Notes: generated by a model from the sequence alone, not told the origin. 64,000 nt of DNA from an uncultured Anaerolineaceae bacterium (GCA_964437595.1 CAYTHO010000008.1:27427-91426); one strand, 5' to 3'; positions 7,047 to 53,058 are shown, numbered from the stretch's first letter. Numbers and translations: made by a program.

Positions 7047-7080
7047 TAAAAAAAAGGCGACCGCGAGGTCGCCTTTTTTA
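7047..7080. terminator. bidirectional Rho-independent terminator between convergent smc and PPIase genes
   Basis: Sequence is A9-GGCGACC-gcga-GGTCGCC-T6. The 7-bp GC stem is flanked by an A-run and a T-run, so it works on both strands. Confidence 0.7.
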
Positions 7081-7093
7081 TAGTCTTTCATGC

Positions 7094-8461: not shown

Positions 8462-8544
8462 GGGCGACCTCTCGATCAAAAAGGTAACTTAAATAACGGG
8501 GCATAAGCCAGATGCCCATGCCCCGCCACAATCATCGGACGGAA

Positions 8545-8823
8545 TTAGAAATCCCCAATTTCTCCGGTAAACGCGAAAGGCAGCAGCGCCAGGTGGCGAG
8601 CGCGCTTGATGGCGGTCGCCAGCTCACGCTGGTGTTTTGCGCAGGTTCCCGTTTGGCGTCGCGGGCGAATTTTCCCATCTTCGGTTACGAAGCGGCGCAG
8701 GAAATCGGCTGCTTTGTAATCAATGAGGGTGTTTTTATCGGCACAGAACTGGCAGATCTTGGGTCGGGCTACATAGCGCCGAAAAGATGGCTGCTCATTC
8801 TCGTTAATGTTATCGTCACTCAT
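8545..8823 (-). CDS. rpsR: 30S ribosomal protein S18
   Basis: [60 protein letters not shown] is the classic bS18 sequence. A GGAG RBS is present. Confidence 0.95.
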
Positions 8824-8837
8824 CTGTCTTACTCCAA

Positions 8838-9248
8838 CTAGAATGGATACTCATCTTCAACTTGGTCTTCATCAGCCATGGGCGTTTCTGCGGGCTGTTG
8901 GGCGCCGGAGTCACGGCGATCACCGAGCATCATCATTTCACTGGCGACAATTTCAATGCTGGTATGTTTGGCGCCTTCGCTGTCTTCCCATCGTCGGGTC
9001 TGCAGCCGGCCTTCCACATACACCTGCTGCCCCTTGGTGAGATACTGCTTGCAGATTTCAGCCAGGTTGCCCCAGGTGACCACATTGAACCACTCCGTTT
9101 CGGTATGGCGCTCGCCGTCTGTAGAATTCCAGGTGCGGCTGGTTGCCACGGTGAACGTTGTGACGGGCTTCCCGGATGGCGTGTAGCGCATTTCCGGATC
9201 GCGGCCCAGGTGTCCAATGATCATTACTTTGTTCAATCCTCGGCTCAT
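8838..9248 (-). CDS. ssb: single-stranded DNA-binding protein
   Basis: Has an OB fold ([33 protein letters not shown]...[14 protein letters not shown]) and an acidic C-terminal tip DEYPF. A GAGGAG RBS is present. Confidence 0.95.
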
Positions 9249-9334
9249 CTTGTGCTCCTCGATTGACGACCCAACTCCACGTCTTGCCTTTCAGGCTGCC
9301 CCTGGTGGGTTTCCCAGGAGAATGGAACGATACC

Positions 9335-9616
9335 TTACTTGCTGATGATCGAATAGCGCATAATGGGTTCTACAAACCGCATATTGCGATCGAGTTCAGC
9401 ACTGAACGAAGGGGCAAACTGTGCTTCCATGTACACATACTGCCCTTCGCGCTGCTTGCGGATCGAGTAAGCCAGCCGGCGCTTACCCCACATGTCGACT
9501 TTGTCGACGCTGCCGCCAGCGCCCGCGATCCATCCCTGGACACGATCAACAACACCCTTCAGGGCAGTTTCGTCCAGGTCGGGATGGACGATCAGAACAA
9601 CCTCGTAGTTACGCAT
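9335..9616 (-). CDS. rpsF: 30S ribosomal protein S6
   Basis: MRNYEVVLIVHPDLDE...VDMWGKRRLAYSIRKQREGQYVYME is bS6. ATG 9616 has a GGAGG RBS; the upstream TTG at 9754 in the track is unlikely. This is the first gene of the rpsF-ssb-rpsR operon. Confidence 0.9.
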   Translation of the reverse strand: MRNYEVVLIVHPDLDETALKGVVDRVQGWIAGAGGSVDKVDMWGKRRLAYSIRKQREGQYVYMEAQFAPSFSAELDRNMRFVEPIMRYSIISK

Positions 9617-38868: not shown

Positions 38869-39360
38869 TTATTTTTGAGTGGGGTATCCGGCCTCTTCCC
38901 AGGCGCGGAACCCGCCGAATATCGGTTCGACGCGCGCGAACCCCATCTCGATCAGGATCTCCGCCGCACGGGCAGAGGATTCTTCGGCAGGTCAGGTGCA
39001 GTAAGTGATAATCCAATCATCGGCGTTCAACTCGCCGGCGCGGCTGGCTAATTCTCCAACCGGGATGTTGATTGCGCCGGGGATATGCGAGACGGCATAG
39101 GATTCCCGGCTGCGCACATCGACGAAGACGGCCTGTTGACTATCCAGGGCGGCTTTAGCGTCATCCAGCGTTACCCGTTGTATTTCTGGAAAGGGCAGGT
39201 TGGGGTCGTTGGTTGGCGCGGCCTGGGTTGCGGCGGCTTGCGGCTGGCCCGGGTTAAGGATTAACCAGATAACCGCGCCACCCATCAGCAGCAGGCCAAT
39301 GATAATCAGGACCAACGGCCGGGTGGACGTTGATGAAGGGTTGTTTTTTCTTCGTTTCAT
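38869..39360 (-). CDS. membrane-anchored single-domain rhodanese with in-frame TGA (38992-38994) at the catalytic-Cys position: candidate selenoprotein, alternatively a nonsense pseudogene
   Basis: The track ORF ends at the TGA after ...WIITYCT. The same frame continues for 40 codons (PAEESSARAAEILIEMGFARVEPIFGGFRAWEEAGYPTQK) to the TAA at 38869-38871 and completes the rhodanese fold. The N-terminus is MKRRKNN plus a TM helix. Confidence 0.6.
38959..38977 (-). promoter_or_regulatory. candidate bacterial SECIS-like hairpin downstream of the in-frame UGA
   Basis: The mRNA reads CUCUGCC-CGUGC-GGCGGAG. This gives 7 bp (one G-U) with a 5-nt loop containing GU. The stem starts 15 nt after the UGA. 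Confidence 0.35.
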
Positions 39361-39381: not shown

Positions 39382-40701
39382 CTACTTAATTGAAACTTCC
39401 TGTGCAGGGTTTGCCCGCGTTGCATGCCTCGGAATATCGAGAAGGAAGAGGAGGAAACCAGCCAGGCTGATTGCGCCGCTTAAAACCAGGGATAGGTTGA
39501 ACCCGATCTGTGCCGCCAGCCAGGGCGCCAGCAGCGGCGCAACAATAGATGATGAATATTGGAGCAGCATAGCTACCGCGACAAACTTGGCGCTGTACTC
39601 CACCGGTACGGTTTTCATCAATTCATCGAAGAGGACCAGGTTGAGCCCGGCGGTGAAAATACCGTTCAGCCCGGCGTAGATGATGACGGGCCAGACCTGA
39701 TGGGTCAGCCCGACCAGGATGGGAAACAGGGAACCGCCGAAAGTTGCAGCTACCAGAACCCATCGCGATCCGCGCCGGCGTGATTGGAGCGTCCAGAAGA
39801 AGTAACCGAGGATGACGGTGATATTGGCGGCGATACTGATCAGCGCGATCGAAGAATCGGCGGCGTTGAGCGTGCGAACATAATAAATTGGCAGCAAGGG
39901 CGCGGCCAGGGCGCCGCCGGTGAGAAAAACAAAGCGCTTGATGATATAGGCGACAAACGGCTTTTCACTGAGAACGTGGTGTAAATAGTCGCGGACCTCT
40001 TCCTTAACGGGCCGGCGCTGGTGAACCTGTTCGTATTGGGGATTGTCTGGCAGAACGATCTGGCTGGAATAATAATAGCTGATCAACCCACCGGCGGAAA
40101 GGCCGATGAAAACGACCTGGTAATTGAGGGGAAAAGGCAGCCAGTCGAGAATCTGCCCGGCCAGCAGCGCGGTTGTGGCATTGGTTAACCCCATGATCGA
40201 CCAGCGGTGGGTCATCAGCTCGTAGCGCCCGCCCGGGCCAGCGACGGAGTTCATCACCACCGAAAAGCAAATATTGACCACCGTTTGAGGAACCGTGACC
40301 AAGGCCCAAACACCCAGGATTCCAATCACAGAAGCAGTCTGGGGCAGGAAGATGGTAATGATGCCGGTCATTGCATAGCTAGACAGGACAATCAGCCGGG
40401 CGGCGCTGAACCAGGGCACAATGTTGCGCCGGGATTGAAGGAACTGCCCCAGGGGGAGCGACAGCAGCATGCCGGTGACGGCGGGCATAAAGGTGAGCAT
40501 GGTCACCGCAAAGGTGGAGCCGCCCAGGCGGGTGAGAAGAACCGGCAGGAACGGCGCGGCTGTGCTGGCCAGGGCCACGCCAACCGCATCGATCTGCACG
40601 TTGCGGAAGTTGATGGGGTTCATATCCGGCGCGGTCTGTGGAACGGTAAACCACCGGATAATTCGGGTGCGGAGTAATTTGAGGTTGGTTCGGACGCTCA
40701 T
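39382..40701 (-). CDS. MFS transporter
   Basis: About 12 TM helices in two halves. Its ATG (40701-40699) directly abuts the TAG (40704-40702) of the upstream WD40 gene. Confidence 0.8.
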   Translation of the reverse strand: MSVRTNLKLLRTRIIRWFTVPQTAPDMNPINFRNVQIDAVGVALASTAAPFLPVLLTRLGGSTFAVTMLTFMPAVTGMLLSLPLGQFLQSRRNIVPWFSAARLIVLSSYAMTGIITIFLPQTASVIGILGVWALVTVPQTVVNICFSVVMNSVAGPGGRYELMTHRWSIMGLTNATTALLAGQILDWLPFPLNYQVVFIGLSAGGLISYYYSSQIVLPDNPQYEQVHQRRPVKEEVRDYLHHVLSEKPFVAYIIKRFVFLTGGALAAPLLPIYYVRTLNAADSSIALISIAANITVILGYFFWTLQSRRRGSRWVLVAATFGGSLFPILVGLTHQVWPVIIYAGLNGIFTAGLNLVLFDELMKTVPVEYSAKFVAVAMLLQYSSSIVAPLLAPWLAAQIGFNLSLVLSGAISLAGFLLFLLDIPRHATRANPAQEVSIK

Positions 40702-42996
40702 CTATAACTCAATGTCAAATTCACCGACCTGGATGGTGGCAGTCTCCGCCAGCTCGATGTCAAATCGCTGGCGCCAGAGCGCCAGGTGGAGGGAAAAGTC
40801 CAGCCACTTCTTTTCGGACGCAGACAGGTGTATATCCTTGACCCGTTCTTGCAGCGCGGCGGCGGCAGGCTGGGCCGCCTTTCCGGATAAGCGGGTGGTC
40901 AGGAAGGTGCGCAGGTCCCAGGCGTTGATGCGCCCGCCGCTGTCGGCGCTGTACAGGAAGTCTCCCTGCGGCGACAGTACCAGCCCGGTGAGCGGCTGGC
41001 GGTGACCGGAAAGCTGGTCGATCACCTGCCCGGTGGAAAGGTTCCATACGGTAATCATACCCTTACTGTTGCCACCGGCCAGCACCTGGTCGTTTGGGTG
41101 CATGCACAGGGCGGTCAGCGGGCCGGCGGCATTTTCAAAGGCGCGCACCAGGCCGCCGCTGGAGAAGTTCCATAAGCGGATCAGGCCTTCGCGCCCCGAG
41201 CTGGCAACCAGTTCAGAGGTAGGGCTGGCGGCCAGGTGGGTGATGGTATCGGTATGGCCTTGCATCTCGCGCGCCGCGGCGCCATCTGGCAGGGTCCACA
41301 CGCGCACCTGGCAGTCGGCCCCGGCGCTGATCAGGTGGCTTCCAGATGCGCCCATAACCAGGCTGAAGATTTCCGCAGCGGAAGGGCGGAGCAGGTTCAA
41401 CCCCGGACCATGGGGGAAGCGCCAGAAACGGAGGGTGCCGTCGAACCCGGCGCTGTACAGGCTGCGCCCATCGGGATGAACTGCCAGTGCGCGGATCATG
41501 GCATGGTGGCCTTCAAAGGTCTTTACCAACTGCCCGCTGCTCAAGCGGAAAATGCGGATGCGGTTGTCGCCGGAGGCGCAGGCAAGCAGCTCGCCATCCG
41601 GGCTAAAAGCCAGCGCGCGGGTAACGGGGGCCGGGCCAATCAGCGAGGTGGGAAGCAGGTCGCCGTCGGGCAGGTTCCACTGCAGGATGTACTGGTCGCT
41701 GCGGCCAGCGGCAAGAACCCTGCCAGCGGGGTGCATGGCCAGGCAGGTGATGTCGGAAATGGGCGGGGCGTACAGCAGTTTCATCGGGTGGATGGACAGC
41801 GGGCTGGCCAGGCAGGCGCGCGAAAGCAGTACCAGACGGGAAAATTCCTCCCGCTCCTGCGCGTTTTCCGGCTGCCAGTTGTGCTTCTCCAGCCAATCCA
41901 GGATGGCGGCGCTCCAAACCGGCGGGGCCACCTGGGCTAACCGCCATAACTCAGCATGCTTTTCTTGTTCAGACAGGCGGCGGATAGTCAAATTCCAATC
42001 CGCATCGGTCAGGTCCTCAAGCCAGCGGACTTCCGCGGCGCTGCCAGTTTCACTCAGCCAGTCTAACTGGCCGGTGTGGCGGCTGTGTTCTAGCAGGCGG
42101 CGGCGCAGCGACCGCCCGGCAGCTTCGTAAGCGTTCACCAGCAGGTGATGATCGAAGTCGAGGGCGGCATACTGCGGCCAGGCTTCGGCCAGGAAGAAAA
42201 ACAACGCGCGCTGCTCGGCGTCTTGCGGCAAGTAACCGCGCGAAAGGATCAACCGGCGGGCATCCGGGTCTTCGTGCCGGATGAAGAGCAGGGCCAGCGC
42301 GTTGCGCGCCGCTTCCTGGGCCGGGGTTGGGGGCGCGTGCGAGGCGTCGGGGCCAGCCAGCCGTTCAAGCTGTTGGAGAACGACGGCGCGCTCGGCAGGG
42401 CGGAAATACGGGTAGCGCTCCACCAGGTCCAGCAGTCGTTCGGCGGTCTCGTCCTGAACGCTGGAAATGATCCGCGCCCAGTTATCCATCTGAACCGAAG
42501 CTGCCGTGGCTATCAACCGGCGTTGAAGCGCTGGAGACGCTTCTTCAAAATATGCCTGGGTCAGCACCGGAATGGATTCTTCGGGATACGACCGGCGCGC
42601 TTCCAGGTGGGTAAACCAGTCGAAGAGGGCGCGCAGCGCCGGAACGCCCGGCTGCCAGCCCTGGGTGATGATCTGCTGGCGAGCCGCCGGAAGATCGTCT
42701 TCGACTGAAAGGCGATAGATGGCATCTATCGCCTGGATGCGGCCTGCCTGGGCCATGCGGAGCAGCGCCTGAAACGCCTGCCCGCGCACGCCTGGCAGGG
42801 AATGTTTTGCAGCGGTTTGGTGAAGCAGGGTGATGGGTGATGCGGCTTCCTGAGCGGCATCCTCCGCCGACCATTCTTCCAAAGTGGCGATGACGCCCTT
42901 TAATAACAGCTCCTGCTGCACCTCGGCGGGAAGCGCCTCATGGATGCTGTTATTGAGGAGATCGGTAAACACGCGAAGCTCTTCGGAAGTGTACAC
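40702..42996 (-). CDS. HEAT-like helical repeat + WD40 beta-propeller protein with conserved FDIEL...GEFDIEL C-terminal tail (paralog of 46390-49143)
   Basis: The N-terminal roughly 400 aa are helical. The WD40 blades include ITCLAMHPAGRVLAAG..WNL, ALAFSPDGELLACASGDNRIRIF, HHAMIRALAVHPDGRSLYSAGFDGTLRFW, GHTDTITHLA..., LIRLWNF, GMITVWNL and GRINAWDL. GTG start 9 nt after the radical-SAM gene stop. Confidence 0.8.
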   Translation of the reverse strand: MYTSEELRVFTDLLNNSIHEALPAEVQQELLLKGVIATLEEWSAEDAAQEAASPITLLHQTAAKHSLPGVRGQAFQALLRMAQAGRIQAIDAIYRLSVEDDLPAARQQIITQGWQPGVPALRALFDWFTHLEARRSYPEESIPVLTQAYFEEASPALQRRLIATAASVQMDNWARIISSVQDETAERLLDLVERYPYFRPAERAVVLQQLERLAGPDASHAPPTPAQEAARNALALLFIRHEDPDARRLILSRGYLPQDAEQRALFFFLAEAWPQYAALDFDHHLLVNAYEAAGRSLRRRLLEHSRHTGQLDWLSETGSAAEVRWLEDLTDADWNLTIRRLSEQEKHAELWRLAQVAPPVWSAAILDWLEKHNWQPENAQEREEFSRLVLLSRACLASPLSIHPMKLLYAPPISDITCLAMHPAGRVLAAGRSDQYILQWNLPDGDLLPTSLIGPAPVTRALAFSPDGELLACASGDNRIRIFRLSSGQLVKTFEGHHAMIRALAVHPDGRSLYSAGFDGTLRFWRFPHGPGLNLLRPSAAEIFSLVMGASGSHLISAGADCQVRVWTLPDGAAAREMQGHTDTITHLAASPTSELVASSGREGLIRLWNFSSGGLVRAFENAAGPLTALCMHPNDQVLAGGNSKGMITVWNLSTGQVIDQLSGHRQPLTGLVLSPQGDFLYSADSGGRINAWDLRTFLTTRLSGKAAQPAAAALQERVKDIHLSASEKKWLDFSLHLALWRQRFDIELAETATIQVGEFDIEL

Positions 42997-43005
42997 AAGC
43001 GGACC

Positions 43006-43587
43006 TTACCAGGTCAGCGGGTCAATGCCGCTGAGGACGATATCGCCATCGGGTTTTACGATGATTTCGGCCTGAGGTACGGCTTCCAGGTCCGCGAGGG
43101 TGTAGCGGCCCGTCAAGAAATGCGCAACCTTGTTAGACGAGCCGATCAGTCCCTGGGCAAGGCGGCGCGAGGCATCATAGCGGCCAGCGATCAGCACATC
43201 CACGTGGGCCAGGAAGCGGTCTATCCCTTTCAGGTGATGAAGCTCATCCCAATCATACCCGCTAAAGACCAGGATGGAAAGGTTCGTCTGGTCACGCACC
43301 TGCTGGAGGAAGCGGGCCAGGGCGCGGTGCTGGTGGAGCGGCTCGCCGCCGCTGATGGTGAGGCCTTCGAGACTTTCCCCACCGGCGCTGTTTTTGATTT
43401 CAATGATGCGCTCCACCAGCTTTTCAACTGGCCAAATTTCTCCACCGCGTACGGCATGCGTCTCCGGGTTAAAACAGCCCGGGCAGCCGAGGGCGCAGCC
43501 CTGCACCCAAACTACGGTTCGCAAGCCGGGGCCGTTCACCCGGCTGGTCGGTTCCAAACGGTGCAGGCGGATATTTTTTTCTTGCAT
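43006..43587 (-). CDS. small radical-SAM protein of the NrdG/PflA glycyl-radical-activase type
   Basis: VNGPGLRTVVWVQGCALGCPGCFNPETH carries the CX3CX2C cluster in the NrdG-like context. It also has ISGGEP and VLIAGRYD. At 193 aa there is no SPASM or other extension. Confidence 0.75.
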   Translation of the reverse strand: MQEKNIRLHRLEPTSRVNGPGLRTVVWVQGCALGCPGCFNPETHAVRGGEIWPVEKLVERIIEIKNSAGGESLEGLTISGGEPLHQHRALARFLQQVRDQTNLSILVFSGYDWDELHHLKGIDRFLAHVDVLIAGRYDASRRLAQGLIGSSNKVAHFLTGRYTLADLEAVPQAEIIVKPDGDIVLSGIDPLTW

Positions 43588-43591
43588 GGGC

Positions 43592-43807
43592 TTACGAGGA
43601 TGCTTTCAGGTGCTGATCCTGGTCGACGTCCAGCGGGTTCTCTTGCTCTAAGGCTTCCGGAGACATGATGCGGGCGATAATCTCCCCTCCCAGGGCTTCC
43701 TCCAACTCCTTGGTAAGCTCAAGGCATTTTAATCCCTGCACGCCGCGCACCTGTATCTGCACCTGCCCATCTTTACCAATGACCACTTCTATTTCTTGGA
43801 GTTCCAT
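43592..43807 (-). CDS. DUF2997-like small protein
   Basis: 71 aa. EIEVVIGKDGQVQIQVRGVQGLKCLELTKELEEALGGEI matches my memory of the DUF2997 pattern (I..DG.V...V.G..G..C...T..LE..LG). Acidic tail. AAGGAAGGA RBS. Confidence 0.6.
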   Translation of the reverse strand: MELQEIEVVIGKDGQVQIQVRGVQGLKCLELTKELEEALGGEIIARIMSPEALEQENPLDVDQDQHLKASS

Positions 43808-43825
43808 CTTTTTCCTTCCTTCGGA

Positions 43826-44206
43826 CTAAGCCATGCGGCGCAGGACGATGCGGATCTGCCCGGTCTCTTCGACCTTTTCCTCCACCATGCTGAATCCCTG
43901 CTGTTCGAGCTTGGCGCGGGAGGCATGGTAAGCGTAGCGCTGCATCAGCCTTTGGGTGAAATCCTTCTGGTTGATGCCGCGCACGCCGAACCAGTCGGCA
44001 ATGATCTCGTAGGTCTCTCCGCGTTTGCGGAGGCCGATATCGTAGCTGAGGGGCAGCTTGATGCGGATATCAACCTGGCTTTTTTGCCCGCCGAAGCCCC
44101 GAACTTCCTGTTCCCCTTCTTCATAGCTAAAGCCCAGGTCTTTGATGGCCTTGAGGGCAAATTCTTTATCCATGATCTTTGTCTGGATCCGCGAAAAATG
44201 CGACAT
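43826..44206 (-). CDS. DUF1257 (Ycf35-like) protein
   Basis: MSHFSRIQTKI.D...L..A..DLGF...VRGFGGQ...DI......YDIG.......YE.IADWF......F...L.QRYAY.....L..QGF is the characteristic DUF1257 N-terminus and layout. ATG 44206 has a GGAGAG RBS. Confidence 0.7.
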   Translation of the reverse strand: MSHFSRIQTKIMDKEFALKAIKDLGFSYEEGEQEVRGFGGQKSQVDIRIKLPLSYDIGLRKRGETYEIIADWFGVRGINQKDFTQRLMQRYAYHASRAKLEQQGFSMVEEKVEETGQIRIVLRRMA

Positions 44207-44218
44207 ATTTCTCTCCAA

Positions 44219-45838
44219 TCAGGTCAGTTTAACGACCGGGTAATCCTTATGGGTCAGACGGCCTGTGATGAGATCGCGCGCGGTAATGGTCAGGCGCTTG
44301 TTTTCATCTACTGAGAATTCTACCTCAAAGCGCGCTTCTCCGCGGCGGGCGGGCGGCTCGGCGGTGAGAAAGGTCTGGTTGTGCTCATTCATCCAGAACA
44401 TGGCGCGCTTTTCCTGCTCGGCGGGGGTCAGGCGGGTGATGCGCGCCGCGCCGCTGGGGTCGAAGACCAGCTCGATCGGCTGAGCACTGGTTTTCTGGCG
44501 CACCTCGCCCAGCTCGTAGATGGCGATACCGAGGTGCTTCTGGTCATCATAAGATGCTTTAATCGACAGGCGCGTGACGGGCTCATTGGTGGGGTAGGGT
44601 GTGCCGCGCTCGACGATGGTGCGGTAATCGTATTTGCCCTTTTCTGGGTTCACGTAGCGGATGGCGTAATCGTGCTGGATGTGGTCGAAGAAATCGATCC
44701 CCGCGATGAAAGAGGCCGCGCCGCGCGCCACGGCATCCAGCGGGCGCTCAAATTTGACCCGCTCGCGCCCAAAGATGTGGCGCAGCGTGCTCTGCACCGC
44801 CGGGATCTGGCTGCTGCCGCCTACCATCAGGGCGGCCTGGATGCTGGTTTCATCGTAGCCGCGCTCGGTAGCGGCGTTAATCGCGGAGCGGATAGTCTGG
44901 TTGATCTCGGTGAACAGGTCGTGGTCGTCGAGCAGCTTCTCAAAGCTGGCGCGGGTGAAATCCGCCGCCAGCACCGCGCCGGTTTCGGGGTTAACTACGC
45001 TGAGGTCAGCCTGCTCGGCAAAGGACAGTTTTTCTTTGATGCGCTCGCATTCCACCAGCAGGGCGGTGCTGATGCGGCGCACATCTTCGTCGCTGTCGGA
45101 ACGGTAGTTTTGGCGCAGTACATCCTGGAAGATCCACTGGTCGATGGTGGCGCCGCCGATATCGCGCCCGGCCTTGCCCAGCACCCGGCAGCGCCGCCCG
45201 CTGACCAGGGAGCCTGTGCCGCCCGGCTTGCTTTCTTCAGCTTCAATCAGCACCACCGCGGCATGCATGGTCCCGCCGCCAAAATCGAAAAGCAGGTACA
45301 CGCTGCCCGGCTGGATGTGCGCGCCGTAGCCCAGCGCAGCGGCGGACGGTTCATCGATCAGGCGGAAGCGCGGCATGCCGGCGCTTTCAGCTACGGATGC
45401 CAGCCAGTTTTCGTAGTGCTCGAAGGCTTCCACGGGCACGCTCAAGGCCACTTCTTCATCCCGGAAGCCGGTTTCCTGGGCGGCGAAGACCAGCACGCTG
45501 GTGAGAAAATCCTGACCGGCAGTGTAGGGCGTTATCTCGCGCCCTGCCACGCGCACTTTGTTCGGGCTGCGGTGGCTGATGTAGCGCTTCATCCAGCGGA
45601 AGGTGCTGGGCGACTGGCGCAGCCCGTGTTGAATGACCTGGCTGCCGATCCAGGTGCGGTTATCCGGCGTGTAATGGATCAGGGATGGGATCACGGAAAT
45701 GGTCTCATCTCCCTGCTTTTCAAGCATGCCAAATTCGGGGATGTGCAGCGGCACACCCTGTTGAAGAGTCTCATCCCACAGGGCAACAACGGTATTGGAT
45801 GTACCAAAATCGACAGCCAGGCGTCCGGGCATATCCAC
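44219..45838 (-). CDS. non-canonical Hsp70-family ATPase (actin-fold NBD + beta-sandwich, no helical lid)
   Basis: Phosphate-1 is LAVDFGTSNT, connect is IDEPSAAALGYG, phosphate-2 is LLFDFGGGTMHAAVV, and adenosine is ALMVGGSSQIPAVQSTL. A C-terminal beta-rich segment ends at aa 539 without a lid or EEVD. The start is GTG 45838, or ATG 45832 with a GAGGTG RBS. Confidence 0.8.
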   Translation of the reverse strand: MDMPGRLAVDFGTSNTVVALWDETLQQGVPLHIPEFGMLEKQGDETISVIPSLIHYTPDNRTWIGSQVIQHGLRQSPSTFRWMKRYISHRSPNKVRVAGREITPYTAGQDFLTSVLVFAAQETGFRDEEVALSVPVEAFEHYENWLASVAESAGMPRFRLIDEPSAAALGYGAHIQPGSVYLLFDFGGGTMHAAVVLIEAEESKPGGTGSLVSGRRCRVLGKAGRDIGGATIDQWIFQDVLRQNYRSDSDEDVRRISTALLVECERIKEKLSFAEQADLSVVNPETGAVLAADFTRASFEKLLDDHDLFTEINQTIRSAINAATERGYDETSIQAALMVGGSSQIPAVQSTLRHIFGRERVKFERPLDAVARGAASFIAGIDFFDHIQHDYAIRYVNPEKGKYDYRTIVERGTPYPTNEPVTRLSIKASYDDQKHLGIAIYELGEVRQKTSAQPIELVFDPSGAARITRLTPAEQEKRAMFWMNEHNQTFLTAEPPARRGEARFEVEFSVDENKRLTITARDLITGRLTHKDYPVVKLT

Positions 45839-45841
45839 CTC

Positions 45842-46393
45842 TTACTCCACAATGGCCTTGTAAACCGTCTTCCCCTGGTACGTCACGCCTGCAAAGCGGA
45901 CGGTTACCGCCTGACCAGCCTGCGGCTGGACGCTTTCGTTGATGGGGGTGTGGTGGTTCGGATCATAGGCGACCTGCTCGCCCACCTGCCCGGCGTATTG
46001 AATGCCATAGCGTTCGAGCGCGCGGGGGATGCGCCGGGCTACCGAGAGCACATCGCGCGCCTGGACGGGCTTCCCCTGCTTTTCAAGAAGGTCGGCCTGG
46101 GTGAGGATCTGGCTGGTAGGTCCGGCCAATTCGCCGAAGAGGCGTGCGAACTGCGCGTCCACCGTTTCAGCAATCACCTGTTCCTGGCGCAGGCGCAGGC
46201 GTTCGATTTCCTGCTTGAGGGCGGCAATGCTCTGGCGGCTGCTGTCCAACTCCATGCGCAGGGACTGGTTCTCTTTTTGCAAGCTGAGCCATTCCGCGGG
46301 CTGTACCGTCTGGGCGGTTGGGGCGGAGTGAACAGGACTCCCGGCAGCGGGTTCGCGCGCGGGTTTCAGAAGGTTAGAGAACCATTTTTTCAT
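45842..46393 (-). CDS. GrpE-like nucleotide-exchange factor
   Basis: An N-terminal coiled coil (LRMELDSSRQSIAALKQEIERLRLRQEQ) is followed by a C-terminal beta domain with VAYDPNHHTP...VTVRFAGVTYQGKTVYKAIV (compare GrpE FDP..HEA...GY....RV.RPA.V.V). ATGA overlap with the upstream gene. Confidence 0.7.
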   Translation of the reverse strand: MKKWFSNLLKPAREPAAGSPVHSAPTAQTVQPAEWLSLQKENQSLRMELDSSRQSIAALKQEIERLRLRQEQVIAETVDAQFARLFGELAGPTSQILTQADLLEKQGKPVQARDVLSVARRIPRALERYGIQYAGQVGEQVAYDPNHHTPINESVQPQAGQAVTVRFAGVTYQGKTVYKAIVE

Positions 46394-49143
46394 GCGGATT
46401 TTTCGGCCTCATCCAGGATAATATCGAACTCCCCGTACTGGATCAGCGGCGCTTCCTCAATCTGGATATCGTAACGGAACCGATATTGTAGCAAAGTTCG
46501 CAGAAATTTCAAGCCGTTGCGGACGGGTTCTGGCAGCGATTGATATTCACCGAGGGCCATTACCGTGGAGATCTGGTCGTGCGAAGCCGTCGACAGCGGC
46601 TGGGCAAACAGCTCGGGAATATCCAGCACGCGCAGGTCCCACAGCACCAGGGTGGCTTCGCTGGTTCCGGTGGCCATAAATGCCCCCTGCTGCGACACGC
46701 GCAGCGAAGTCAGCGTTCCCTCTGGCGCAAATCCCTGCCCCATCAGTCGCATATCCGGCCAGTGAATGAAGCGCATCTGGCCCTCAGCCCCAGCCGTTAC
46801 CACCAGCGGGTGCCCGGGTAGGAAATGGATTCCGCGAACCGGCTGGCTGTGCTGAGTCAGCACAGCCCTGCGCGGGCGCTGGGGCAGGGAGTTATGGTAG
46901 TACAGCCCCACCTGCCCATTATGCTGCCCGGCCAGCAGGTACTTCCCATCTGGCGAGAAGACGGCATCCTGAGCGGTGCCTTTCCGAAAGCCATCCGCGC
47001 GGGAGGCCAGGTATGGATTGCCAGGGACGAGGTTCAACTCGGGCAGGCGGACCAGGCTGAGGCGGTCGTGAAGCAGGGCGACGGTGGTATTATCTGGCGA
47101 AATGGCTGCCGAGCGCGCCCAGAAGAGGAACTTTTTCTCCGAAATTTTCTTTTTTCGGGCCAGGTCCCATAAGAAAACGTGGCTGTCGCGCCCGGCGGTG
47201 AGCAGCAGGTCATCGCCCACCGGCTCGAGCGCGGTAACGGTGCCCTCGTGGGCGGTAAGTTGGAAGGCTTCCTCCGGGCCGTAGGCGTATACCGAACACA
47301 TGGCATCGTTATTGGTGCGCTCGGCGCACAGCAGCAGCCCGCGCGGCGTGAAATGTACCTTCCCGACGGAGTGTAGAAAATCTTTCCATACTCGCTCGAC
47401 CGCGGCGGTCTGGAAGTTCCACAACACCACTTTGCGCTGGCTGGTGGCGATAGCCAGCACCGGGCGGTTGGGTGAAAAGGCAACATCATTGATGCGGCCT
47501 TTTACCTTCAAGGTAGCGCGAGAATGCGCCAGCGGTAAGACCCGGGTTAGCTCGGGTCCGGATAAGAGAATGGGCTGCTCGGATAGGCGCACCAACTCAT
47601 CATATACGCCCTGGTCGGCTTCCGCAGGCGGGTGCCAGTTGGCCCTGGACAGGATTTGGATGATTTCCAGGCTGAAAGGGAGGGCCAGGTCAGGCGCCAG
47701 GCGCCAGAGGCGCTCGTACTCGCGGTTTTCGGTCAAAACGCGGATCAGCAGGGCAGCCTCGCTGGGGTTGACCTTCTCCACCCGCGAGCGGTAGTCCACC
47801 CCGGCAAGGATGGTGAGGTAGTCGGTGCGCCTGGCAGCCTGCACGCGCGCGGCGATGCGCTGGCGCATCTCTGGTGGGCTGCCTTCATAAATCGCGCGCA
47901 GCATGCTCTGGTCAAAATCGAGCGCGTCATACTCGGCCCACTGGTCGGTAAGAAAGTAGAAGAGGGAGCGGGTTTCTGGCGCGCGGGGAGCATACCCGCA
48001 GGTCAATGCAACCTCCCTGGCTGCGGCCACATCCTGGGCCGCGGTTGGATCTTCGCCAGGGACATCGTTCGCTTCAATGGCTCGCCCGCACAATGCATCG
48101 CGCGTCTCCGCATCCTTCAGGTTCGCCAGTGCGCGGCGGGCATTCTGCTGGATGGTTTCATCGGGGTCGCGGGTGGCTTGCAACAAGAACGGCAGCCCCT
48201 GCGGGGTGGCTTTTTCGGCGATGTGCATTTGCCCGGCTTTGAGCGCAACCAGCAGGCGCACCCGGGCAGGGCTGCGTGCTTTATAGCCGGCCTGAAGCAG
48301 GGCGGTTTCAAGCAGCGGGCTGCGGTTCTCAGCCCACAGCCGGCAGAACTCATCTACGGCGGCCTGGTTATTGAGATGTGGAAGGCATTGGCGAGCGCGG
48401 GCGGCGATCTCTTTGTCGGTATCCTCGCAGGCAGCTACCAGTGGGGCCACGACCTCGGATCTGCCGCTCATGACGGTTTCGAGCTGGTTAATCAAAAGCG
48501 CGGAGAGCACGCGCGCGGCGGGTGGTTTTTGGGCTACGTAACCGGCCTGGCGCATGATCTCGGCCAGCGCGGGGCTGCGGCTGGACTGCCAGGCCTGGCA
48601 TAAGGAGTCGATCGAGGCGGGGTTGCGCAGGCCGCGGATGACCTCCCCGGCCCGGGCGGCGATCTGCGGATCGCGGTCCGAACAGGCCTGAATCAACGGC
48701 GCGACCAGGTCGGCGCTGCCGCGGGTGATAGTGTTCGCTGCGTCGGGGCGCAGCAGGCTGAGCCGCAGCGCGCTGAGCAGGCGCACGCTGGCGGGGTGGT
48801 CAGCGATGCGGTTGTAGCCCAGCGCGATCTGTTCCAGGTCGGGATGGCGGGTTTCTGCCCACACCCCCCACACAGCATCAATGCCGGTGGAGTAGTTGAT
48901 GCGCTGCAGCGTCTGCCCAGCCATGGCGCGCACATCGGCGTCGCTGTGAAAAGCCAGAACCACCGCCAGCGACTGGGCTGCCAGCCAGTTCCCCGCCAGC
49001 GCGGATTCGTTCAACGCCGCAGTGACCCGGCGGTGCATCCAGCCGCCGATGATGGGCACATCCTGCTCCAGTATCCAGCGCCAGCGTTGGATGCGCTCGG
49101 CTTCGTTATTTTCAGTTGGCCGGTTGGGTTGGTTCTTCGTCAC
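46390..49143 (-). CDS. HEAT-repeat + WD40 beta-propeller protein with conserved YDIQI...GEFDIIL C-terminal tail (paralog of 40702-42996)
   Basis: Three roughly 95-aa HEAT-like modules each carry ...VRLL.AL......APL..AC.D.D..IAARA.....L.N....D..C..W. A central helical region shares LF(F/Y)FL...W..Y.ALDFD with the paralog. WD-like blades include DVAFSPNRPVLAIATSQRKVVLWNF, LLTAGRDSHVFLWDL, AVFSPDGKYLLAGQHNGQVGLY, VVTAGAEGQMRFIHW and MATGTSEATLVLWDL. GTG start. Confidence 0.8.
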   Translation of the reverse strand: MTKNQPNRPTENNEAERIQRWRWILEQDVPIIGGWMHRRVTAALNESALAGNWLAAQSLAVVLAFHSDADVRAMAGQTLQRINYSTGIDAVWGVWAETRHPDLEQIALGYNRIADHPASVRLLSALRLSLLRPDAANTITRGSADLVAPLIQACSDRDPQIAARAGEVIRGLRNPASIDSLCQAWQSSRSPALAEIMRQAGYVAQKPPAARVLSALLINQLETVMSGRSEVVAPLVAACEDTDKEIAARARQCLPHLNNQAAVDEFCRLWAENRSPLLETALLQAGYKARSPARVRLLVALKAGQMHIAEKATPQGLPFLLQATRDPDETIQQNARRALANLKDAETRDALCGRAIEANDVPGEDPTAAQDVAAAREVALTCGYAPRAPETRSLFYFLTDQWAEYDALDFDQSMLRAIYEGSPPEMRQRIAARVQAARRTDYLTILAGVDYRSRVEKVNPSEAALLIRVLTENREYERLWRLAPDLALPFSLEIIQILSRANWHPPAEADQGVYDELVRLSEQPILLSGPELTRVLPLAHSRATLKVKGRINDVAFSPNRPVLAIATSQRKVVLWNFQTAAVERVWKDFLHSVGKVHFTPRGLLLCAERTNNDAMCSVYAYGPEEAFQLTAHEGTVTALEPVGDDLLLTAGRDSHVFLWDLARKKKISEKKFLFWARSAAISPDNTTVALLHDRLSLVRLPELNLVPGNPYLASRADGFRKGTAQDAVFSPDGKYLLAGQHNGQVGLYYHNSLPQRPRRAVLTQHSQPVRGIHFLPGHPLVVTAGAEGQMRFIHWPDMRLMGQGFAPEGTLTSLRVSQQGAFMATGTSEATLVLWDLRVLDIPELFAQPLSTASHDQISTVMALGEYQSLPEPVRNGLKFLRTLLQYRFRYDIQIEEAPLIQYGEFDIILDEAEKSA

Positions 49144-49181: not shown

Positions 49182-49255
49182 GGCGCAACGTACTATTTCT
49201 GCGGCGCGAACGCCACTACTTGCGTGGCGCGAACGCCACTATTTGCGTGGCGCGA
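49182..49255. repeat. tandem roughly 23-nt repeats forming alternative hairpins at the AAA-gene stop / intercistronic region
   Basis: ggcgcgaacgccactacttgcgt (49203-49225) and ggcgcgaacgccactatttgcgt (49226-49248) are flanked by degenerate copies at 49182-49202 and from 49249. Read on the minus strand the array is CGCCAC-GCAAAUA-GUGGCG-UUCG-CGCCAC-GCAAGUA-GUGGCG-UUCG-CGCCGC. Confidence 0.7.
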
Positions 49256-50795
49256 TTTCCAGTCGGACAAACTGGTTCTCGGCATCCTGCGCTTCCACAA
49301 AAGAAGCCGATTGAGCGCGGCCTTCGCGCAGCCACTCGCGCAAGTAGTGGATCACCTCGCGCTGCGAGACGGAGAGCGGCACCTGGCGAGACAGCGCGCT
49401 CATAATGTCCGCGGTGGTGAACTCGCGCTCGTTGTCGTTGAAGCCAATGTACATGGCATCGATGATGGCTTGCTCGATCTCCGCGCCAACGTAGCCTTCG
49501 GAGGCGGCAGCCAGGCGGTCGAGGTCGAAATCCTGGGGCAGGCGGCGGCGCTTGCGCAGGTGTACGGCGAAGACCTCTTTGCGTTCCTCCAGGGTGGGTA
49601 GGTCCAGGAAGAAAATTTCGTCAAAGCGGCCTTTACGCAGCAGCTCGGGCGGCAGGCTGGAGATATCGTTGGCAGTGGCTACCACGAACACCGGGGCCTT
49701 TTTCTCCTGCATCCAGGTGAGCACGGTGCCGAACACGCGCGTGCTGGTGCCGCTGTCCAGCCCGCCGTGGGCCAGGGCCTTTTCCATTTCATCAATCCAC
49801 AGCACGCAGGGAGCGATGGTTTCGGCCAGGTGCAGGGCGCGGCGGGTGCGCTCTTCCGATTCGCCAATCAGGCTGCCGAACAGCGCGCCGACATCCAGGC
49901 GCAGGAGGGGCATGCGCCACAACCCGCCGATCATCTTGGCGGTGAGGCTTTTACCGGTGCCGGGGATGCCCAGCAGAGCAATGCCCTTGGGCATGGGCAG
50001 GCCGTATTCGCGGGCGCGGTCGGAGAAAGCCCGGTCGCGCAGGCGCAGCCATTCCTTGAGCACTTTCAGGCCGCCAACGTTATCCAGCGACTCCGTGAAG
50101 GGGAAGAATTCCAGGGCTTCGCTTTCGCGGATGATCTGCTTCTTTTCATCGGTTACCAGGTCGATATCGGTATCGTCGAGCATGCCGTTGCGCACGATGG
50201 CTTTGGCAAATACCCGCTGGGCCTGAGAAGCGGTGAGGCCTACCGCGGCCTTGACCAGCTTTTCTTTCCCTAAAGCCGTCAGGTTAATGCGCACGCCGGA
50301 AATGTGGGTCAGGTCATCGAGCACCTTCTGCAGCTCGCTGGCGTCGGGCAGGGGAACAGCCTCCAGGACGATCTCATCCTTTAGTTCATCGGGGATGCGC
50401 GAGGTTGGGGTAAGGATGAGGATGGATTTCTTGGTGAATTTCATTTCCTGCGAGAGACTGCGCAGCTTGCGGCGCACCTGGGCGTTCTGCCAGAAATCGT
50501 GAAAATCTTTGAGCACAAACAGGGTCGCCACCTGACCGTCCATTTTCCCAATCTGCTCCAGCGCTGCCAGCGGGTCGCGGGCGGCGGGTAAGCTGCCGCT
50601 GCTCGCAGAAACCCATTGGAATCCATCCGCTACGTCCCAACTCATGCTGCTGCGGTGCGTTTCCTCGCACATGCGTTTTATCATCTGCAGGGCGCGTTCT
50701 TCTTCGTGCGTGGTCAGGACAATGAAGGTGAAGCGCGCGCGCAGATAAGTGTCTAACTGCTTTTCAAACCTTGGCATTTCTTTTTCGATCGTCAT
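49239..50795 (-). CDS. Ycf46-type AAA+ ATPase
   Basis: The C-terminal AAA module has Walker A GIPGTGKS, Walker B VLWIDEME, and [21 protein letters not shown] roughly 250-aa N-terminal region lacks a P-loop. [48 protein letters not shown] strongly resembles cyanobacterial/plastid Ycf46 as I remember it. Confidence 0.8.
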
Positions 50796-51076
50796 TCAGG
50801 CCAGTCTCCCTGTGTTTTTCTGGAGCTTTTGGATTTCGATAGGAATGAGGATTCTTGCCCCGAATATTATATTTTACGCGCATTCGTTCAACTTTTCAAA
50901 TAATTCGAACAATTGTTTTGTTATTGAAACCAAAAATAAGCCATCCATCCTATTTGCTGATAAAATCCCAGGAAAAGGCTGGGGCAAAACTCGACACGTT
51001 CCGTTCTTTTCCCCGAAACCAATCGCAAAGGTAATCCACGTGGTTTGTCTAAGATGGTGAATTGAGGAGGAACAAA

Positions 51077-51949
51077 ATGGATCCCGTTGAACATATCGTT
51101 TCATCGCAGTGCAAGCTGGGGGAAGGCCCCGTGTGGCACCCGGTTGAGCAGGTCTTGTACTGGTTGGATATCTACCAGGGCCAACTCCATCGTTATGACT
51201 CGCACACGCAAGACCATGCTGTGGTGGAGTTAGGGCTGGTAACCAGCGCAATGGGTGTGAGGCCTGGGGGCGGGTTTGTCATGGCGACTCAGAAGGGGTT
51301 TGCCTTGTGGGACCCCAACTCCGGGAATTTTCAGTTCCTTGGGGACCCGGATGCCGATGAAACGGGCAGCACCCGCTTCAATGACGGTAAAACCGACCGC
51401 CAGGGGCGGTTTTGGGCGGGGAAAATGGGGCCTGACCCGGCCAACAGCCTCTTCCGCCTGGGTGCTGACCGCTCAATACAGCGCATGGAAAGCAGCATCT
51501 ACATCTCGAATGGTTTGGGCTGGAGCCCGGACAACCGGGTCTTCTACTTTACCGATTCGATGGCGAGGGCCATTTATGCGTACGATTTCGACGCCGATCG
51601 TGGTTTGATTGGCAGGCGCAGGATATTTGCACAGGTGGCAAACGATCCAAAGGAAGGCCTGCCGGATGGTCTGGCGGTGGATGCCGAGGGCTGCATCTGG
51701 AGCGCCCGGTGGGGCGGCTGGAAAGTGGTGCGTTATTCGCCGGACGGATCGGTGGAACGAGAGATACCAATGCCGGTGGAATTCCCAACCAGCTGTGCAT
51801 TTGGAGGGTCCGGCCTGACCGATCTTTATATTACCTCTGCCTGGGTTGAGGTACCCCCTGAACGGAGAGACAGCCAGCCTATGGCTGGGGATTTATTCCG
51901 CCTGCGGGCGGGAGTCAGGGGCCTGGAGGAGCCGCTTTACCTGGGATAG
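51077..51949 (+). CDS. SMP-30/gluconolactonase/LRE-family lactonase
   Basis: LGEGPVWHPVEQVLYWLDI..G.LHRYD, RFNDGK.D..GRFWAG, PDG...D.EG..W.A.WGG and LYITSA. GAGGAGG RBS before ATG 51077. Confidence 0.85.
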   Translation: MDPVEHIVSSQCKLGEGPVWHPVEQVLYWLDIYQGQLHRYDSHTQDHAVVELGLVTSAMGVRPGGGFVMATQKGFALWDPNSGNFQFLGDPDADETGSTRFNDGKTDRQGRFWAGKMGPDPANSLFRLGADRSIQRMESSIYISNGLGWSPDNRVFYFTDSMARAIYAYDFDADRGLIGRRRIFAQVANDPKEGLPDGLAVDAEGCIWSARWGGWKVVRYSPDGSVEREIPMPVEFPTSCAFGGSGLTDLYITSAWVEVPPERRDSQPMAGDLFRLRAGVRGLEEPLYLG

Positions 51950-52038: not shown

Positions 52039-53058
52039 TTACGAAACGCTGGAGGTCTTCAGCATCGCTTCAAGCGTTCTGTGGATGCTTTCATACGCGG
52101 GTTTAGGCTGGTAGTACTGGTCGAAGATCAGCGGTTCATCCGGGTGCCCGGTGAAGCCGGGAATCCATGAATACCGGTCGGCTACGCCCCACAGGATACA
52201 CGCTTTAAACTGCGGGACGCGCAGCGCTGTACCCAGGATTTTTTCGTAAACATCCGCCTGCTGGCGCAGCCGGTCTTCCAGCGAGCCGGTGGCGTTCTGG
52301 ATAGCCACATCCATTTCGGTGATATGGATTTCCAGGCCCAGGTCGCCCAGGCGCTTCATGTTTTCGTACATCTCGTTTGTGTCAGGTGGTTTGGCAAGCT
52401 TTTCTGTGCCGTTGATGGCAATGTGCATTTGCATGCCAACCCCGTGGATGGGGACATTCAGGGCGAGCAGTTCTTTGGCGGTATTGTAGATGGCGTTGGA
52501 TTTACTATTTATCCCTTCCGCGCTGTAATCGTTGAGGAAAAGGCGCGCGGAGGGATCGGCTTCATGCGCCCAGCGGAAGGCGTACTCGATGTAATCTGGA
52601 CCAATGGTATGCATCCAGAAGGAATCGCGCAGGCTGCCGTCCGCCTCAATGGGTTCATTGACCACATCCCAGACTTCAATCTCTTCATGGAAATGGCCCA
52701 TGGTGGTGAAGATATGTTCGTGGAGCAGTTCGAGGGCCTGGTTTCGGTTGAAATCGCCCTCAATCAGCCAGGGCGGGTTTTGATGGTGCCAGACCAGGGT
52801 ATGACCACGGATGTGCATGAAATTGGCTTTGGCGAAAAACACCAGTTCGTCGGCGGGTCCAAAGTTGTACACTTTGGGCTCGGGGCAAAGATTGCCAAAT
52901 TTCAATTCGTTTTCGGCGGTCAGGAAATTGAATTCTTCTGCCAGGGTTTCCCGGTAAGCCGAATCGGTACGCAGCGCGTGGGCGTTTGCCGCAGCGCCCA
53001 TGTAAAATTCTTGCAGATCAGCTATTTCGCGTAAGGAAGCAGTATGGTCTGCTGTCAT
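52039..53058 (-). CDS. GH10 endo-1,4-beta-xylanase, no signal peptide
   Basis: TAENELKF, IRGHTLVWHHQ.P.W, WDVVNEP (acid/base Glu), LFLNDY, and IHITEMDV (nucleophile Glu). AAGGAGAGG RBS. Confidence 0.88.
   Translation of the reverse strand: MTADHTASLREIADLQEFYMGAAANAHALRTDSAYRETLAEEFNFLTAENELKFGNLCPEPKVYNFGPADELVFFAKANFMHIRGHTLVWHHQNPPWLIEGDFNRNQALELLHEHIFTTMGHFHEEIEVWDVVNEPIEADGSLRDSFWMHTIGPDYIEYAFRWAHEADPSARLFLNDYSAEGINSKSNAIYNTAKELLALNVPIHGVGMQMHIAINGTEKLAKPPDTNEMYENMKRLGDLGLEIHITEMDVAIQNATGSLEDRLRQQADVYEKILGTALRVPQFKACILWGVADRYSWIPGFTGHPDEPLIFDQYYQPKPAYESIHRTLEAMLKTSSVS

Follow-up and report, generated by a model that had tools for sequence, protein, structure and literature searches.

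In a 64,000-nucleotide stretch of DNA from an uncultured Anaerolineaceae bacterium (GCA_964437595.1, CAYTHO010000008.1:27427-91426; the whole stretch is referred to below as the window), two HEAT-WD40 proteins encoded in one operon, termed A and B, end in similar acidic-hydrophobic C-terminal tails. We find that this tail is conserved across a large protein family, that it lies at the extreme C-terminus, that it is predicted to be exposed, and that it is linked in operons to genes for an Hsp70-like ATPase, a GrpE-like protein and an AAA+ ATPase. From these observations, we hypothesize that the tail most likely tethers the members of the family to this chaperone machinery; our first guess for the component that reads it, offered tentatively, is the substrate-binding domain of the Hsp70-like protein. 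The organism, an uncultured Chloroflexota-like bacterium, occurs in anaerobic-digester, manure and wastewater metagenomes.

The C-terminal tails of the two window proteins

Judged from their sequences, A (917 residues) and B (764 residues) are paralogs: BLASTP aligns them at 23% identity (E = 2e-25), in an alignment that spans the helical middle and the WD40 region and runs to the last residue. In translation A ends in ...LRTLLQYRFRYDIQIEEAPLIQYGEFDIILDEAEKSA and B in ...LHLALWRQRFDIELAETATIQVGEFDIEL, exactly the tails, at exactly the coordinates, that an initial annotation of the window had reported. The 37-residue tail of A is encoded by 46393-46503 and is followed by the stop codon at 46390-46392, while the last 29 residues of B are encoded by 40705-40791 (both genes are on the minus strand). 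The likeness between the two tails, which the same annotation had pointed out, is far beyond chance: their local BLOSUM62 score is 68, against a mean of 19.4 (standard deviation 3.9) and a maximum of 45 in 20,000 shuffles, none of which reached 68. At the DNA level, the two coding segments are 57% identical over the 63 aligned nucleotides, and synonymous codons differ at 8 of the 12 residues that the tails have in common. These different codons rule out recent gene conversion between the tails and suggest that their likeness is held by selection at the level of the protein. The tail-coding region has no unusual RNA structure (z = +1.7). We also observed a sigma-70-like -35/-10 pair inside the tail-coding region of A (46485-46512, minus strand; TTGAAA, a 16-nt spacer and TG-TACAAT, with 10 of 12 matches), about 90 nt upstream of the GrpE start; a promoter and terminator scan of the region gave a number of sites not above the shuffle expectation.

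AlphaFold2 (AF2) models of the two proteins, made from family alignments, have predicted local distance difference test scores (pLDDT) of 91.4 for B and 91.5 for A, and predicted template-modelling scores of 0.83 and 0.71, respectively. Both models consist of a helical repeat region, which includes the domain that we call MID, followed by a complete seven-bladed propeller (residues 404-694 of B and 540-836 of A). The propeller of B superposes on the complete seven-bladed domain of 5yzv with a Foldseek TM score of 0.94 and a root mean square deviation of 1.6 Å over 288 residues; a Foldseek search with the whole B model returned WD40 propellers only and is uninformative on the helical part. After the propeller come two short helices and one long helix (726-750 in B, 872-888 in A), with pLDDT above 90 for most of its length: in A, the 10-residue blocks covering 871-890 have mean pLDDT of 98 and 94, and in B the helix stays at about 94 to residue 740 and falls beyond. 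Both chains end in coil with pLDDT of 44-54, over 14 residues in B and 29 in A. As the tail has no part in closing the propeller and its end is modelled as coil of low confidence, the models present it as an exposed linear motif and not as a velcro strand. The most conserved residues of the protein are predicted to lie on a segment left unpacked in the monomer, as is usual for linear motifs that become folded when they bind.

A purely structural role would make the tail a velcro strand of the propeller or a packing strand, with no exposed peptide; the velcro strand had been named in the initial annotation as an outcome that would speak against a docking peptide. The position of the tail after the WD40 domain and the strand-like alternation of its residues would suit such a role. 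We nevertheless find it scarcely credible, given that the tail is not needed to close the seven blades in either model, that the propeller matches a complete domain so closely, and that proteins of a sister system described below carry a tail but no WD40 repeats.

Distribution of the tail and of the MID domain

A profile made from four tail sequences was used for an exhaustive HMMER search of 1.84 billion representatives at 50% identity, and matched 425 protein clusters at E <= 1e-3, 36 of them at E <= 1e-10. The tail had been described at first as private to the two window proteins; that description fails, as these 425 representative clusters and 77 genome loci from many phyla carry it. Word-index protein searches returned very little (two fragments for the tail, no match for the MID domain of B and three fragments for a MID profile), and since the exhaustive search found 425 clusters we ascribe this scarcity to a limit of the index and not to rarity of the family. 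In approximately 135 of 149 matches, GEFDI is followed by 2-5 residues to the C-terminus. A logo of 172 intact proteins gives frequencies of.98,.91,.92,.98 and.98 for the G, E, F, D and I of this core, and of.87 (I),.29 (Q),.69 (V/I/A) and.98 (G) for the tetrad that leads into it, so that the consensus reads I-x-[VIA]-G-E-F-D-I. The L, F, L and R positions of the helix before the tail are also conserved in the profile. Full-length matches fall into two size classes that mirror the window paralogs, one of ~745-780 residues ending in GEFDIEL or GEFDIQL and one of ~875-905 residues ending in GEFDI[IL][LI]D; a third class of ~760-835 residues ends in GEFDIEIEG.

All 74 tail matches of at least 600 residues also contain the MID region (phmmer E = 1e-9 to 1e-66), a helical domain of ~165 residues with the consensus GYxPxDPxxRALFxFLTxQWxxYExLDFD ... 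LWxLAQxAPPxWS. The internal signatures GY.P..R.LF.FL..W..Y.ALDFD and LWRLA, first noticed as common to A and B, turn out to be conserved motifs of this domain throughout the family. Across the full-length alignment just two positions never vary, the final Asp of LDFD in MID (D280 in B) and the Gly of GEFDI (G758 in B). Both MID and tail are present in 95 intact open reading frames (ORFs) of the genome loci. ORFs with only one of the two are mostly frameshift pairs within one locus, in metagenome-assembled genomes (MAGs) from long reads, or are cut by contig ends, and no clear intact MID protein lacking a tail was found among the genome-locus ORFs. The tail is found without MID in two further cases (loci are cited by their L numbers): a 389-residue protein with WD40 repeats and tail, lacking HEAT and MID (L063 6721-7890), and a 61-residue mini-ORF consisting of helix and tail, which overlaps the preceding tail gene and the GrpE start (L050 5676-5861). 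From these two cases we take the tail to be modular. One protein of 1372 residues (P0013) carries the tail motif twice, inside the chain at residue 835 and again at its end; apparently two tandem paralogs have been fused or read through here, and the case is uninformative.

Searched alone, tail and MID have no Pfam-A match better than E = 0.05, and their profiles have no match among Protein Data Bank (PDB) sequences better than E = 0.1. NCBIfam and PADLOC scans with the whole proteins gave a weak β-propeller or HEAT/WD40-type match for B and none for A, and members of the family are annotated at source just as "WD40 repeat protein" or "hypothetical protein". The tail therefore appears, by sequence comparison, to stand outside any curated family in Pfam-A, NCBIfam, PADLOC or the PDB sequences. 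The possibility that MID is a cryptic J-domain was rejected, as hhalign gives a probability of 0.1% for the MID profile against the J-domain of E. coli DnaJ.

Gene neighbourhood in the window and in other genomes

Genomes were scanned, one per species, with the pattern IxxGEFDIE[LI], which yielded the 77 loci; these were annotated with profiles built from the window proteins, and most come from MAGs. They belong to Chloroflexota (including the isolate Anaerolinea thermolimosa IMO-1 and a MAG labelled A. thermophila), Verrucomicrobiota, Planctomycetota, Acidobacteriota, Desulfobacterota, Cyanobacteria (including an Obscuribacteraceae MAG), Thermoleophilia, Armatimonadota and Moduliflexus/UASB14. 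A gene order AAA - tail protein (1-5 paralogs) - GrpE - Hsp70 - DUF1257 - DUF2997 - radical SAM recurs in Chloroflexota, Verrucomicrobiota, Planctomycetota, Acidobacteriota, Desulfobacterota, Cyanobacteria, Actinomycetota, Armatimonadota and Moduliflexus. As far as these sequences tell, the cluster is conserved in nine or more bacterial phyla, and the tail itself is present in orthologues from as many; its absence from other genomes had been named at the outset as a finding that would discredit it.

Neighbours were counted for 113 intact tail genes, taken from the genome loci and from metagenome loci of the same family or intermediate to it (L080-L105). The gene immediately downstream is GrpE in 26 cases and Hsp70 in 16, which together make 42 of the 113, and is the MFS transporter in 16 and another paralog in 11. 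Immediately upstream, AAA is found 32 times, radical SAM 20 times and a paralog 11 times. DUF1257, DUF2997 and the radical SAM gene form a three-gene block, which shifts its position within the cluster (43006-44218 on the minus strand in the window, and most loci of L003-L105), and several loci have the two DUF genes but no radical SAM gene. Minimal loci of Gemmataceae have only the tail protein, AAA and Hsp70, and in L028, L045 and L071 a tail protein and Hsp70 occur with no AAA within 7 kb. Chloroflexota loci, of which a Chloroflexia MAG (L003) holds the one nearest to that of the window, often continue with a second tail gene and with genes for an MFS transporter and a rhodanese; among the named genome loci of the scan, the transporter-rhodanese end is confined to Chloroflexota. 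In several loci (L026, L037, L046, L083, L095), AAA and GrpE are separated by 3-5 tail-bearing paralogs in tandem. An additional DUF1257 paralog often stands right after the AAA gene (L026, L046, L056, L058, L067, L083, L087), and MAG H5_CFX5 has the system divided between two loci, L044 and L071, with a tail protein in each.

When metagenomes were scanned with the Hsp70-like protein as anchor, Hsp70s at least 56% identical to it were found in the same cluster, and there the tail is slightly variable. A B-type protein whose gene comes directly after the radical SAM gene has Ser in place of the Gly (L090 7697-9988, equal to L096 2311-4602; ...IQLSDFDIAIE), and a protein of L083 has Ala (7015-9528; ...IRAAQFDIEF), on a contig that ends before any radical SAM position. 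Beyond these lies a sister system (L107-L114, L116-L119, L126) with an Hsp70 that is 31-35% identical and the order MID protein - GrpE - Hsp70 - (radical SAM) - AAA. Its MID proteins are mostly of ~390-480 residues, reaching ~820 in L116, L118 and L119; five that were examined have no WD40, and most of the loci have no radical SAM gene. The AAA gene moves away from the MID gene, whereas GrpE and Hsp70 stay adjacent to it. Sister tails read ...LLQLLTLLQxYFLRGLITVDSxDDATESNAVEMEDLxDVEW or ...LEILCAFQAVFVGAGITVDASADAAHRHAIEVEDAPNEIF, the second type being also given as ...GITVD...HAIEVEDAPNEIF. They match the scheme of the main tail, a helix followed by two short segments of alternating hydrophobic and acidic residues, but the residues differ and the Gly is mostly absent. 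On this comparison the tail would co-vary with the chaperone core, a diverged Hsp70 system having a related but distinct tail.

In the window, A and B sit in one tightly packed operon of 10 genes on the minus strand, with overlaps or very short gaps throughout (Table 1). The ATG of the GrpE-like gene overlaps the stop codon of A (ATGA; 46390-46393), the stop codon of B is followed immediately and in frame by the ATG of the MFS gene (40699-40704), and the radical SAM gene directly precedes B. The two small DUF genes were absent from the operon as read in the initial annotation. In its alignment with Hsc70, the Hsp70-like protein covers residues 144-444 and 457-497 and ends short of the helical lid. 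The AAA+ ATPase belongs to the classic clade, which includes PAN, Cdc48, FtsH and CdvC, by NCBIfam matches that are below the cut-offs. The radical SAM enzyme scores 108 bits against TIGR02491 (NrdG), below the cut-off of 126, and its only solved relative by sequence is PFL-AE, the pyruvate formate-lyase activase (E = 1e-10). Pfam detects no J domain (DnaJ) in any protein of the operon, and no glycyl radical enzyme was found in the operon. GTPase, vWA and MoxR genes were likewise not found by Pfam in the window operon, and none belongs to the conserved gene set, the related loci having been screened only for the operon's own families.

The AAA+ ATPase is extraordinarily conserved across phyla, with hmmsearch E values about 1e-280 in Chloroflexota, Verrucomicrobiota and Planctomycetota loci. 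Its conservation takes in the N-terminal half of ~250 residues, which by eye may be a degenerate AAA-type α/β domain, and the C-terminal ...EGRAQSASF. The genes on either side of the operon are apparently unrelated to it: a periplasmic-binding-domain MCP chemoreceptor (34319-36829, plus strand) and an AMP-binding acyl-CoA-synthetase-like enzyme (37022-38725, plus strand) on one flank, and an SMP-30/gluconolactonase (51062-51949, plus strand) and a GH10 xylanase (52039-53058, minus strand) on the other.

Table 1. Genes of the window operon and features of the two tail proteins, in positions of the window
Feature	Position	Strand	Basis
AAA+ ATPase, classic clade, first operon gene	49239..50795	-	Pfam AAA and AAA_lid_3; NCBIfam CDC48/PAN/FtsH-like, below cut-offs
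Paralog A	46390-49143	-	ORF
MID domain of A, about residues 365-535	47539..48051	-	phmmer, alignment; GYxP...RxLFxFLxxxWxxYxALDFD and LWRLA signatures
Seven-bladed WD40 propeller of A, residues 540-836	46636..47526	-	Pfam WD40 and β-propeller; AF2 strands
Amphipathic helix before exposed peptide of A, residues 872-888, ...GLKFLRTLLQYR	46480..46530	-	AF2 helix
Exposed C-terminal peptide of A, residues 889-917, FRYDIQIEEAPLIQYGEFDIILDEAEKSA	46393..46479	-	translation; AF2 coil, pLDDT 47-54
GEFDI core of A	46420-46434	-	translation
GrpE-like protein	45842..46393	-	weak Pfam GrpE match, E = 3.8e-5
Hsp70-like ATPase: nucleotide-binding domain and β-sandwich substrate-binding domain, no helical lid	44219..45838	-	Pfam HSP70
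DUF1257 (Ycf35-like) protein	43826..44218	-	Pfam PF06868, E = 5e-28
DUF2997 protein	43592..43807	-	Pfam PF11211, E = 3.5e-16
Small NrdG/PFL-activase-like radical SAM enzyme	43006..43587	-	Pfam Fer4_12 and Radical_SAM
Paralog B	40702-42996	-	ORF
MID domain of B, about residues 240-405	41782..42279	-	phmmer, alignment
Seven-bladed WD40 propeller of B, residues 404-694	40915..41787	-	Pfam; AF2; Foldseek
Helix before exposed peptide of B, residues 726-750, KKWLDFSLHLALWRQRFDIELA, includes first RFDIEL copy	40747..40821	-	AF2
Exposed C-terminal peptide of B, residues 751-764, ETATIQVGEFDIEL	40705..40746	-	translation; AF2 coil, pLDDT 44-51
GEFDI core of B	40711-40725	-	translation
Short tail peptides: TATIQVGEFDIEL; APLIQYGEFDIILDEAEKSA			
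MFS transporter	39382-40701	-	Pfam
Rhodanese	38992-39360	-	Pfam

A putative docking handle and the alternatives to it

We propose that the tail may be a family-wide C-terminal module of the adaptor or sensor subunits of an Hsp70-GrpE-AAA+ system, which is often extended by DUF1257, DUF2997 and a NrdG-like radical SAM enzyme. The module would have two parts, an amphipathic helix (WLxFxxxLxxWRxR) packed against the protein body and an unstructured acidic-hydrophobic peptide, [FY]DIx[LIV]-x6-8-IxVGEFDIE[LI], that ends 2-5 residues past GEFDI. The exposed peptide would be a common docking handle, through which one shared chaperone core could engage any paralog, whether made of HEAT and WD40 repeats, of WD40 repeats only or of helices only. 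The reader that we favour is the lidless β-sandwich substrate-binding domain of the Hsp70-like ATPase, which would bind the peptide in the form of an extended strand, with the AAA+ ATPase as our second choice. We infer both the docking and the partner, and hold the proposal as quite possible but tentative.

In favour of the Hsp70-like protein, the substrate-binding domain is kept without a lid, and a specialised Hsp70 is encoded with its putative client. With no J-protein in the operon, some other device for targeting this Hsp70 would be needed. Main and sister systems alike preserve the order tail gene - GrpE - Hsp70, whereas the place of AAA changes, and in the window the tail gene and the GrpE gene overlap. 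Since the sister system and the minimal loci keep a tail, often without radical SAM, the reader is more likely to be found in the Hsp70/AAA+ core than in the radical SAM enzyme. Of what the initial annotation had suggested, the docking or recognition peptide thus survives as a conserved, terminal element, predicted to be exposed, with the same operon partners, though not as a private one; among its candidate readers, the Hsp70 substrate-binding domain and the AAA+ ATPase are plausible and not separable from each other, while the case for a substrate of the radical SAM enzyme is weakened.

Known systems offer partial parallels to a docking handle. In the HscA-IscU pair, a dedicated Hsp70 recognises the LPPVK motif of a single client. 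The window resembles this arrangement in that a specialised Hsp70, with its β-sandwich substrate-binding domain kept, is encoded beside a putative client with a short, conserved, exposed motif. It differs in having no J-type co-chaperone equivalent to HscB by Pfam, an acidic and C-terminal motif, several paralogous putative clients, and an AAA+ ATPase and a GrpE-like protein in the set. Acidic-hydrophobic C-terminal tips or tags are also familiar from the DDDIPF of SSB, the EEVD of Hsp70/Hsp90 that binds TPR domains, the MIM of ESCRT-III that binds the MIT domain of Vps4, and ssrA with ClpX. Like the known docking tips, the tail is a short, disordered, terminal peptide of acidic and hydrophobic residues, conserved far above the domains before it and common to proteins that would use one machine; its motif is a different one, with no Pfam or PDB match.

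We stress that several observations weigh against docking to the Hsp70-like protein. Canonical DnaK prefers hydrophobic cores flanked by basic residues, and the tail is strongly acidic. The AAA+ gene adjoins the tail genes at least as tightly as the Hsp70 gene does. It had been suggested at the outset to check whether tail genes always adjoin the same partners: the conserved cluster was found in both genome and metagenome loci, but in 7 of the 19 genome loci that have flanks of 6 kb or more on each side the tail gene is an orphan, with no AAA+, Hsp70, GrpE, DUF1257, DUF2997 or radical SAM gene nearby. In the orphans L014, L025, L055, L059 and L076 (Verrucomicrobia, Moduliflexus/UASB14), none of the main partner genes lies within 6-10 kb to the left or right; in L014 the opposite strand holds a rhodanese-like ORF. 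Finally, the genome loci were selected by a tail pattern and their motif frequencies are biased upward, a bias that the profile matches and the Hsp70-anchored metagenome loci do not have.

That the tail is instead an engagement tag for the AAA+ ATPase, whose N-domain or pore would recognise the acidic C-terminus and remodel or unfold the HEAT-WD40 protein, we consider less likely but plausible. AAA+ stands immediately upstream of tail genes more often than any other gene (32/113), is very strongly conserved across phyla (E around 1e-280) and is of the clade of PAN, Cdc48, FtsH and CdvC; the tail is predicted to be disordered, is terminal and has an AAA+ gene adjacent, and the minimal Gemmataceae loci retain AAA. 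Disordered C-terminal tags are the classical entry point for AAA+ unfoldases, with analogies in ssrA-ClpX, the MIM of ESCRT-III with the MIT domain of Vps4, and the acidic tubulin tails with katanin or spastin. Threading through a pore, however, does not usually need a near-invariant core of five residues, the AAA gene leaves the MID gene in the sister system while GrpE and Hsp70 remain, and L028, L045 and L071 pair a tail protein with Hsp70 in the absence of a nearby AAA gene. Less probable again, indeed improbable, is self-association, in which two amphipathic β-strands (RFDIEL ... GEFDIEL) around an I-x-V-G core would join the paralogs in intermolecular sheets or higher-order assemblies by RHIM/BASS-like stacking or strand exchange, and Hsp70, GrpE and AAA+ would be the machine that assembles or disassembles them. 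The motif is indeed common to 1-5 paralogs of one operon, its two pseudo-repeats have alternating hydrophobic residues, and many host lineages are filamentous or otherwise complex; moreover, Hsp70, a nucleotide exchange factor and AAA+ are the composition of a disaggregase, and the consensus IQVG, present in B (A has IQYG), equals the RHIM core tetrad, (I/V)-Q-(I/V)-G. Yet a net charge of about -5 over the last 21 residues is unfavourable for in-register stacking, the Q of the tetrad is found in just 29% of sequences, and AF2 gives the first repeat as helix or coil and not as strand. The tail further departs from RHIM and BASS, whose low-charge segments pair an effector's C-terminus with an NLR's N-terminus, in being charged and not N-, Q- or G-rich, in occurring at the C-termini of MID or WD40 proteins only and at the N-terminus of no partner gene, and in the lack of an NLR in the loci.

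We give very little credence to the tail as a substrate of the NrdG/PFL-activase-like radical SAM enzyme, which would place a glycyl radical on the near-invariant Gly or modify GEF in some other way. It is just as doubtful that this enzyme, with DUF1257 and DUF2997, acts on the exposed G-E-F to give a radical-bearing, cleavable or cross-linked C-terminus that the Hsp70/AAA+ core would then handle. An operon with an activase-like enzyme and no glycyl radical enzyme, a Gly that is 98% conserved on an exposed C-terminal loop, and a radical SAM gene directly upstream of 20 of the 113 tail genes, paralog B among them, recall a glycyl radical enzyme with its activase, in which the Gly also lies close to the C-terminus. 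A NrdG-like radical SAM gene is present in 42 of 75 annotated genome loci, many of which are truncated, and is missing from five loci named below. The glycyl-radical fingerprint is RVxG[FWY], and the tail lacks it, IxVGEF having no Arg and its aromatic residue displaced by one position. The tail proteins also differ from glycyl radical enzymes in their HEAT-WD40 fold, which is not a 10-stranded α/β barrel, and in having no Gly_radical Pfam match. The Gly can be replaced, by Ser directly after the radical SAM gene (L090/L096) or by Ala (L083), and is mostly missing from the sister tails; full tails occur with no radical SAM gene in L045, L062, L070, L071 and L074 despite several kb of flank; and the radical SAM gene forms a block with DUF1257 and DUF2997 rather than with the tail genes. 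If this reading were true, HEAT-WD40 scaffold proteins would be a new class of activase substrate.

A search of the literature available to us found no description of the gene cluster or of the combination of MID, tail, DUF1257 and DUF2997, the sole link being a cyanobacterial cluster of DUF2997, Ycf35 (DUF1257) and the ferredoxin Fed7 (PMC4284462). In that cluster, as here, the DUF1257/DUF2997 pair adjoins an iron-sulfur protein; in the present case that protein is a radical SAM enzyme, and the three genes lie inside an operon of Hsp70, AAA+ and tail proteins. This parallel suggests that DUF1257 and DUF2997 may work with iron-sulfur proteins. Chaperone-centred NTP-dependent conflict systems of multicellular prokaryotes (Kaur, Burroughs, Iyer and Aravind 2020, PMC7159879), in the parts of that account available to us, likewise combine a chaperone ATPase with repeat-domain proteins (WD40, HEAT, TPR) in variable copy number in similar taxa, and some include HSP70 and GrpE or a radical SAM enzyme; as described in those parts, however, HSP70/GrpE are tied to GAP1-N2 GTPases and radical SAM to FtsH/vWA systems. 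The tail is thus a new motif of a familiar type, attached to a domain and a system that are apparently undescribed.

The tail is the mark of a protein family that has no name, with at least 425 clusters at 50% identity, and of a likewise unnamed helical domain, MID. It also marks a system of 8-10 genes in nine or more phyla, which has an Hsp70 without a J-protein, a GrpE-like protein, a classic-clade AAA+ ATPase, DUF1257/Ycf35, DUF2997 and an activase-like enzyme without a glycyl radical enzyme. I-x-x-G-E-F-D-I-E-[LI] at a C-terminus is a simple sequence marker of this system in genomes, and a tail peptide of 7-14 residues is an experimental entry point, as bait for the component that reads it. 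The long-standing "ycf" and DUF families DUF1257/Ycf35 and DUF2997 are linked by the cluster to a chaperone context, and the Hsp70 of the system may be a natural example of targeting that does without a J-domain.

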